A DNA stretch of 64,000 nucleotides from Escherichia phage JK1. The notes under the pieces were generated by a model that had not been told where the DNA came from, searched no databases, and was given only the letters and a program-made list of their open reading frames with translations. A program made the translations under genes and the position numbers. Positions 9,619 through 11,126 of the stretch are shown piece after piece. Positions within the stretch are counted from its first letter, which is position 1; each line of letters starts with the position of its first letter. The stretch is taken from the sequence record MZ436830.1. One strand, written 5' to 3'.

Positions 9619-9686
9619 GTTATCGAGTTGGTGCCATTATATACATCATTTTCTGAGTGTGTTTTGTGTGCTTTCAAAATGAAGAA

Positions 9687-9702
9687 AGGGGCCGAAGCCC
9701 CT
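9687..9702 (-). terminator. Terminator after hoc (minus strand)
   Basis: AGGGGC-TTCG-GCCCCT hairpin on the minus strand followed by a U-rich tract, 5 nt after the hoc stop. Confidence 0.6.
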
Positions 9703-9707
9703 TATGA

Positions 9708-11126
9708 TTATGGATAGGTATAGATGATACCAGTTTCTAAAGCAGTTTTATGAATGATGTATCCATTACGCGATTCTTGGACATCAACTTCTGGATAGTC
9801 TTTCATCATCTTCTGAAGAGTGTAACGATGCAGGTAGTATTTACTATCTGGATCTTCAGTTTTCCAATCTTTACCTTCTTCAGTCATTTTTTGAATTTCA
9901 TCCATAACCCACCAACCGCACCAGATGTAAGCTGAGCTACGGTGTGGAAGAGGATGAACATAAGGTAATTCACCTTCTGGTTCTGGAGCAACTTTATCAG
10001 TTACCTGAACTTGACCTTCTGCTGTAATAGTTTTGCTATCATAATCAGTAGCAGTAACAATTGCCGTAACTTCAATAGTTTGACTTCCAATAGATGAGGT
10101 ATCAACGGTATATACATTAGTTGACCCTTCTACAGGAGAAGAATCTTTCTTCCATGAATACGCAATTTGCGCTTCTTCTGGAGCATCAGTGACATTAGCA
10201 GTAAATGTAGCCGAAGCATCTTGTTGAACGTTAATAGAAGGAGGAGTCAATGTAACCTGTGGATTCATTGTCTTCTTATTAACCGTTAATGATACTTCAT
10301 TCGAAGTAACCTCCTTTTCATTGTAATTTTCTGCAGTTACTTGCGCTACACATTTAATTCTTTTTACTCCACTTGTAGTTGGAGTATAGTTAAATGTAGC
10401 AGAAGTTGCTTCACCAATTTGAGAATCATCTACATACCACTGATACGTAGCAGATGCTCCACCAGGTTGAGAAGCTAAGGCAGCAGTAAATTGAACTGGG
10501 GTTCCAATTACTCCAGCTGGAGGACTATCAGGAGTTACTGCCAAGGTAGTTGTCTGTGTCTTTTTATTAACAGTCAGTGACACTTCATTAGAAGTAACTT
10601 CCTTTGCATCATAATCTGTCGCGGTTACTTGAGCTACACACTTAATTGTTTTAACTCCGCTTGCGTCAGGAGTGTAATTGAATGTAGCAGAAGTTGCTTC
10701 GCTTACAGGAGAACCGTCAACGTGCCATTGATACGTAGCAGACGCTCCTGGTGGCTGTGAAGCCAAGGCAGCAGTAAATTCAACGGCTGTTCCGATTACT
10801 CCTTCCGGAGGACTAGCAGGAGTTACGGCTAATGTAGTTGTTTGTGTCTTATTTTGAACTGTGATAGTTGTACTAATTTCTGCTGTTTCAGGTTCAGATT
10901 CTGCAACTTGATTGGTTGCAACTACTTTAATAGTCTTTTGACCGGCAGGTCCTTTTAGTACATAACTAAAAGTTGCTGACGTTTCTTCCTGTGGAGCGTC
11001 GTCTACAGTCCAAGCATATGTAATAGGTCCATCTCCAGTTTGACCACTGGGTGTAGCAGTAAACTGCTGAGTCTGATCTATAACTCCAGTAGGTGTTTTA
11101 GGAGTTATATCAACTGTAAAAGCCAT
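9708..11126 (-). CDS. hoc: Hoc, highly immunogenic outer capsid protein, with four Ig-like domains
   Basis: 472 aa ORF; C-terminal capsid-binding segment and Ig-like repeats recognisable as Hoc; contains an internal tandem duplication of about 96 aa; hairpin terminator downstream. Confidence 0.9.
   Translation of the reverse strand: MAFTVDITPKTPTGVIDQTQQFTATPSGQTGDGPITYAWTVDDAPQEETSATFSYVLKGPAGQKTIKVVATNQVAESEPETAEISTTITVQNKTQTTTLAVTPASPPEGVIGTAVEFTAALASQPPGASATYQWHVDGSPVSEATSATFNYTPDASGVKTIKCVAQVTATDYDAKEVTSNEVSLTVNKKTQTTTLAVTPDSPPAGVIGTPVQFTAALASQPGGASATYQWYVDDSQIGEATSATFNYTPTTSGVKRIKCVAQVTAENYNEKEVTSNEVSLTVNKKTMNPQVTLTPPSINVQQDASATFTANVTDAPEEAQIAYSWKKDSSPVEGSTNVYTVDTSSIGSQTIEVTAIVTATDYDSKTITAEGQVQVTDKVAPEPEGELPYVHPLPHRSSAYIWCGWWVMDEIQKMTEEGKDWKTEDPDSKYYLHRYTLQKMMKDYPEVDVQESRNGYIIHKTALETGIIYTYP
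10270..10845 (-). repeat. Tandem duplication (2 x 288 bp) inside hoc encoding two near-identical Ig-like domains
   Basis: Unit 10270-10557 and unit 10558-10845 are roughly 85% identical in-frame repeats (KKTQTTTLAVTP...VSLTVN twice). Confidence 0.85.

Follow-up and report, generated by a model that had tools for sequence, protein, structure and literature searches.

The hoc gene of Escherichia phage JK1 (sequence record MZ436830.1) contains an in-frame tandem repeat that makes its product longer than Hoc of phage T4, and the question raised by this locus is whether the repeat is a recent event peculiar to JK1, an error of genome assembly, or a form that JK1 shares with other T4-like phages. 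In T4, Hoc is a fibre of 180 Å made of three Ig-like domains and a capsid-binding domain, and Hoc homologues consist of Ig-like domains in strings that range from 1 to 10 domains (PMC10385173). A Hoc protein without one domain has been characterised (PMC11853027), and Hoc domains mediate mucin glycan binding, with binding sites that vary between phages (PMC11853027; PMC11150434). Here we analyse the JK1 repeat within the window, that is the whole stretch of 64,000 nucleotides, and among the hoc genes of related phages.

Results

Identity and neighbourhood of the gene

The hoc coding sequence lies on the minus strand at positions 9708-11126 and is an open reading frame of 1419 nt, encoding 472 residues followed by a stop codon, with matches to T4 Hoc and to PHROG profiles. 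Protein comparison pairs its product with T4 Hoc (PDB 5vf3_Z, 376 aa) at E=5e-209, and profile comparison pairs it with PHROG 1149, 'Hoc-like head decoration', at E=2e-138. Both the reading frame and the 5vf3_Z alignment bear out the sequence-only reading, which had named the gene hoc and had set its 472 residues against the 376 of T4. According to PHROG assignments, the prohead-protease inhibitor gene inh is found upstream, RNA ligase 2 and two small conserved ORFs, which are 24.3-like and 24.2-like, are found downstream, and the DNA helicase gene is divergent, on the opposite strand. The records of T4, RB3, teqsoen and teqhad are annotated with the same gene order, and the gene thus occupies the position of hoc; T4 Hoc (PDB 5vf3, 8t1x) is the product of the same gene at the same genomic position. 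By homology and gene order, the JK1 gene is hoc, and its product is predicted to be a head outer capsid decoration protein of the T4 type.

A putative terminator was found by consensus scan at 9686-9703 on the minus strand. This candidate, a strong GC-rich hairpin (AAGGGGCTTCGGCCCCTT) followed by a T-rich tail (TCTTCATTTT), lies 5 nt past the stop codon of hoc and resembles an intrinsic terminator. The promoter scan returned a number of sites no higher than in shuffled controls.

Domain architecture and predicted fold

In the alignment of the two proteins, residues 1-112 of T4 Hoc pair with residues 1-112 of JK1 Hoc, and T4 residues 99-376 pair with JK1 residues 195-472; the offset means that JK1 Hoc contains exactly one extra unit of 96 residues. 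All parts of the protein are encoded on the minus strand. Starting at the N-terminus, Ig-like domain 1 (aa 1-91, positions 10854-11126) is assigned from the β strands of an AlphaFold2 model with pLDDT of about 90. It is followed by repeat unit 1 (aa 92-187, 10566-10853), an Ig-like domain of a lineage called A below, which is the 'extra' one with respect to T4 and is delimited by repeat finders and in-frame comparison, and by repeat unit 2 (aa 188-283, 10278-10565), an Ig-like domain of lineage B, to which T4 Hoc domain 2 belongs, assigned from the T4 alignment and a Pfam PKD match. What T4 Hoc lacks with respect to JK1 Hoc is therefore the lineage A unit of 96 residues that follows domain 1 and precedes the T4-like domain 2. 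The next domain (aa 284-376, 9999-10277) is equivalent to T4 Hoc domain 3 according to the T4 alignment, Pfam and the model, and a capsid-binding domain at the C-terminus (aa 377-472, 9711-9998) is recognised by its near-identity to T4 Hoc 281-376 and by phrog_21694.

The AlphaFold2 model, for which an alignment of 42 sequences served as input, comprises four all-β domains (β-sandwiches) with pLDDT of about 90, corresponding to residues 1-91, 92-187, 188-283 and 284-376. A Foldseek search of this model against the PDB returned strings of four Ig domains as the best matches, namely Sidekick Ig1-4, ICAM-5 D1-D4 and Dscam1 Ig1-4. Pfam PKD matches residues 195-267 (37.7 bits, above its cutoff of 23.5), and Ig_3 and I-set match at residues 289-373. 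An N-terminal linear string of Ig-like domains, one of the features that define membership in Hoc, is thus present in JK1 Hoc according to the model, Foldseek and Pfam PKD. The repeat units share about 40% protein identity with domains 1 and 3, which are more distant paralogues. Together, alignment and model indicate that JK1 Hoc is a protein with four predicted Ig-like domains, one above the three of T4. A fourth domain had already been deduced from the repeat, with structure prediction proposed as a check; the T4 alignment, the Foldseek matches and the four confident β domains of the model all agree with that deduction.

Residues 377-472 of JK1 Hoc are almost identical to residues 281-376 of T4 Hoc, the motif HPLPHRSSAY is kept, and phrog_21694 matches residues 408-472 (E=1e-41). 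Two residues of this domain in T4 Hoc, His299 and Arg300, contact gp23 (PMC10385173); they correspond to H395 and R396 of JK1 Hoc, so that the capsid-binding domain that marks Hoc members is found here with both residues in place. Model confidence is poor in this region, with pLDDT below 50 for residues 386-405 and 446-472, and capsid binding is hence argued from the sequence identity with T4 and not from the model. This near-identity suggests that JK1 Hoc would attach through the same C-terminal domain, at the centre of gp23 hexamers, and that each hexamer centre on the mature capsid would carry one molecule.

Position, divergence and age of the repeat

At 10269-10850, Tandem Repeats Finder detects 2.0 copies of a 288-nt period, with a score of 747 and 80% matches, and a second repeat search pairs 10269-10556 with 10557-10844 at 79% identity. 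These searches confirm the two adjoining in-frame units of 288 bp that the sequence-only reading had placed at 10270-10845; that placement describes the repeat found here, with its register moved slightly. Within the hoc frame, the units adjoin each other and have 288 nt each (10853-10566 and 10565-10278, in the direction of the gene). Unit 1 begins NKTQTTTLAVTP, and unit 2 is KKTQTTTLAVTP...SNEVSLTVN, a peptide that had been quoted correctly and that belongs to this second unit.

Identity between the two units is 78-79% at the DNA level and 80-82% at the protein level, somewhat less than the figure of roughly 85% given before, while shuffled controls reach 26% ± 2.5% and 34% at most. Differences between them number 13, 9 and 41 at codon positions 1, 2 and 3, and the Nei-Gojobori estimates are dN 0.11 and dS 0.96 (dN/dS 0.11). 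In total 21% of sites differ, and no stretch of identity exceeds 20 nt, so that the copies are far from the near-identity that marks a recent or artefactual duplication. Differences that fall mostly at third positions, together with such a short longest run, mean that the duplication is ancient and not produced by assembly; it is old, and purifying selection acts on both units.

The unit boundaries had also been taken for a recombination footprint. No such footprint was found in a comparison of the three Ig-Ig junctions: the junctions between domain 1 and unit 1, between the two units, and between unit 2 and domain 3 all carry a V-x-N-K-T linker (DNA GTT-NAA-AAT-AAG-ACA), and the unit boundaries are ambiguous within about 10 nt. 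The boundaries of the repeat are simply domain boundaries, and at about 21% divergence no footprint would be expected to survive.

Copy number among related phages

A megablast search with JK1 hoc gave a DNA match in 656 phage records, and the top 29 matches all span about 1419 bp with 94-96% identity. The search joins both halves of the query on a single subject unit, so that one-copy genes also score 100% coverage; query coverage being blind to copy number, the span in the record was used instead. It was counted in 60 evenly spaced rows of the 656, which is a systematic sample and not a full census, and among the 52 full-length hoc matches of this sample 20 span about 1419 bp and 32 about 1131 bp. 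At the protein level, the best 120 clusters have lengths of 376 aa (83 clusters), 472 aa (28), 468 aa (1), 568 aa (7) and 570 aa (1). The lengths 376, 472 and 568 aa step by exactly 96 residues, the 288-nt unit being present in one, two or three copies.

The 472-residue Hoc proteins of teqsoen, AdolfPortmann, PinkRuby, slur02, phiD1 and G10400 have the architecture and length of JK1 Hoc, with 94-95% identity in DNA or protein; they differ from it by point differences and small mosaic patches only, and divergence is highest in the repeat units. The 568-residue form (e.g. UGKSEcP1) shares the 96-residue module and the flanking domains with JK1, but has three tandem units, in the order A-B-B', and five Ig-like domains.

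Over positions 1-25000 of the window, the nearest genomes are 97.5-97.9% identical to JK1. At least eight of them carry two copies (teqsoen, AdolfPortmann, QOTSP, JLBYU22, TH09, phiD1, Some and PhiZZ30), and teqhad, a close relative, has a one-copy hoc of 1131 bp (376 aa). Indeed, one-copy teqhad and two-copy teqsoen are each about 97.6-97.9% identical to JK1 over these 25 kb. Close relatives thus show a copy-number polymorphism of a tandem domain, in which the same unit is found in frame once, twice or three times. The sequence-only reading had named a four-domain form common to all the closest relatives as the result that would speak against it; most of the nearest genomes do have this form, but teqhad does not.

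Two lineages of units

Units of 288 nt were taken from ten other hoc genes, comprising four one-copy, four two-copy and two three-copy genes. They fall with those of JK1 into two deep lineages, A for the first unit and B for the second and later units, with 75-79% identity between the lineages and 82-99% within them. Unit 1 of JK1 belongs to A, with identities of 90% to UFV13's only unit, 85% to unit 1 of teqsoen and 78% to the T4 unit, and unit 2 belongs to B (94% to RB3, 93% to unit 2 of ECO4, 88% to the T4 unit). One-copy genes are found with either type, an A unit in teqhad and UFV13 and a B unit in T4 and RB3. Within A, the teqhad unit is 94% identical to unit 1 of teqsoen; within B, the RB3 unit is 96% identical to unit 2 of ECO4 and the T4 unit 92% identical to unit 2 of mobillu. 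The three-copy genes read A-B-B', and the two-copy gene of Pu-Krd-SF4 reads B-B', whose units share 95% and 98% identity with the second and third units of a three-copy gene. A shared length of 472 aa is therefore compatible with different unit compositions, as this phage shows (compare the E. coli assembly contig ABZCBI010000006.1).

Mosaic patterns were read from the only 12 diagnostic sites that are fixed between A and B, derived from the ten comparison genes. On these sites the teqhad unit is of A type and then of B type at its 3' end, and short patches of the other type are found in UFV13 and in both units of JK1, unit 1 being mainly A with small B patches.

At the DNA level, domain 1 of JK1 hoc is 99.6% identical to that of teqsoen and 84% identical to that of T4. 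The JK1 units are 85% and 91% identical to those of teqsoen, the nearest genome, as against 99.6% for domain 1, 98.9% for domain 3 and 97.9% for the surrounding 25 kb. In this comparison the repeat, and no other part of the gene, looks like a local mosaic or a hot spot of recombination.

Observations on related records

Several records matched by JK1 hoc have features of their own. In the RefSeq record of T6 (NC_054907.1, 301-1432), hoc is annotated as two overlapping coding sequences, 301-786 and 767-1432, and spans 1132 bp instead of 1131 bp, which suggests a 1-nt frameshift, either in a true pseudogene or from a sequencing error. A T2 record (PV648363.1) has three Hoc-like coding sequences beneath the match. 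The best DNA match of all (95.7%) is MG010123.1, a 32-kb 'Staphylococcus phage SAJK-IND' with plainly Tequatrovirus-like content, so that probably the host is mislabelled, or else the record contains contamination. In GiZh (KT184311.1), the depositors placed inside hoc a feature named 'direct repeat sequence5 posible binding site of StbAB', a plasmid-partition term that is odd for a capsid gene.

The phage mobillu (MN850622.1), classed in Mosigvirus, has a two-copy hoc of the Tequatrovirus type, 91% identical to that of JK1, whereas RB69, another T-even relative, matches over no more than roughly the final 270 nt. This hints at a hoc exchange across genera, or at an error of taxonomy.

Discussion

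The results reported here lead us to consider JK1 hoc as the common two-copy allele of an old hoc copy-number polymorphism in Tequatrovirus, a reading to which we assign a probability of about 0.9. The domain-2 module is present once, twice or three times in tandem, giving proteins of 376, 472 or 568 residues with three, four or five Ig-like domains before the capsid-binding domain.

The repeat had been presented as a tandem duplication that adds a fourth Ig-like domain; read as a notable event in JK1 itself, it would be recent and lineage-specific. JK1 hoc does exceed T4 hoc by exactly one unit of 288 nt, and the units adjoin in frame. However, with 21% divergence and dS close to 1 the copies are not young, and each is 85-94% identical to its counterpart in other phages as against 79% to its own neighbour. 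Moreover, the same architecture is found in hundreds of database genomes, the 1419-bp gene being carried by 20 of the 52 sampled matches and by most of the nearest genomes, and a recent origin in JK1 is thus very improbable. An expansion or collapse introduced by assembly, a risk that the sequence-only reading had raised and to which tandem repeats are prone, has even less to recommend it and can hardly be credited. The longest stretch shared by the units is 20 nt, so that normal reads would be placed uniquely, 21% of the sites differ, the open reading frame is intact with purifying selection on both units, and many phage genomes, assembled independently of one another, show this 1419-bp gene as well. 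Unit divergence and distribution among phages led us to reject both explanations.

A different history would make the one-copy form ancestral: one-copy A and B alleles would have been joined into a two-copy gene by unequal crossover between co-infecting phages, and the present one-copy genes would not be deletions. T-even phages recombine freely, one-copy genes of both lineages exist, as the protein classes also show, and domain 1 also occurs in deep allele classes, with 84-85% or 96-99% identity to JK1. Furthermore, the short linker motif at all Ig-Ig junctions could support unequal pairing. Such a joining would still need a common origin of A and B and would leave the content of JK1 hoc unaltered, and the A-then-B order in every A-containing multi-copy gene examined fits a single origin, in a comparison that is unrooted. 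We regard this history as possible, though doubtful. It bears on the order of gains and losses, for which our data are no more than suggestive, since the A/B chimera of teqhad may stem from ordinary recombination between one-copy A and B alleles instead of a deletion.

Under the preferred reading of an old polymorphism, the simplest account is that the array of modules would have been repeatedly expanded, contracted and patched, likely by unequal homologous recombination and by short, conversion-like exchanges from one unit to another. Co-infecting phages would in this way reshuffle both the number of copies and the kinds of unit. T4 is not the neutral baseline against which the JK1 gene had been judged: its unit belongs to the lineage of JK1 unit 2, and one-copy A and B genes both exist. 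On these grounds the three-Ig Hoc of T4 is one allele among several and, as far as an unrooted comparison of units can indicate, plausibly the result of a loss.

Variation in the number of Ig-like domains is already published for Hoc. RB49 Hoc and the Hoc-like fibre of Serratia phage Muldoon, the latter having 10 Ig-like domains, combine a conserved capsid-binding domain with a variable Ig string, as JK1 Hoc does (PMC10385173). These fibres are distant homologues with other domain sequences, whereas the Tequatrovirus variation concerns a single module in near-identical genomes. We found no explicit description of the 472-residue form with tandem domain 2, nor of the polymorphism of one, two and three copies in Tequatrovirus, in the literature searched, and this is a minor descriptive gap.

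As to function, the JK1 Hoc fibre would be one domain longer than that of T4 on the same capsid site, and the gain would be about 45 Å if the 180 Å of the four-domain T4 fibre are divided by four. The suggestion made from the sequence alone that a longer fibre could alter adhesion is a reasonable one. Variation between one, two and three copies could go further and represent adaptive tuning instead of neutral length variation, with recombination reshuffling fibre length and A/B content and thereby the reach, avidity or glycan specificity of mucus adherence; we put this forward tentatively and think it rather unlikely.

For the JK1 genome the finding has little significance, as its hoc is a standard allele present in many sequenced T4-like phages: it is a real feature but an ordinary one, typical of a well-populated and already annotated allele class. 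For the genus, four-Ig Hoc is common and five-Ig Hoc exists, and the 376-residue Hoc of T4 is thus no default architecture for the annotation or engineering of Tequatrovirus, be it for Hoc display or for mucus adherence. The domain-2 module, in one, two or three copies and of types A and B, may serve as a natural series in which fibre length can be related to mucin binding.
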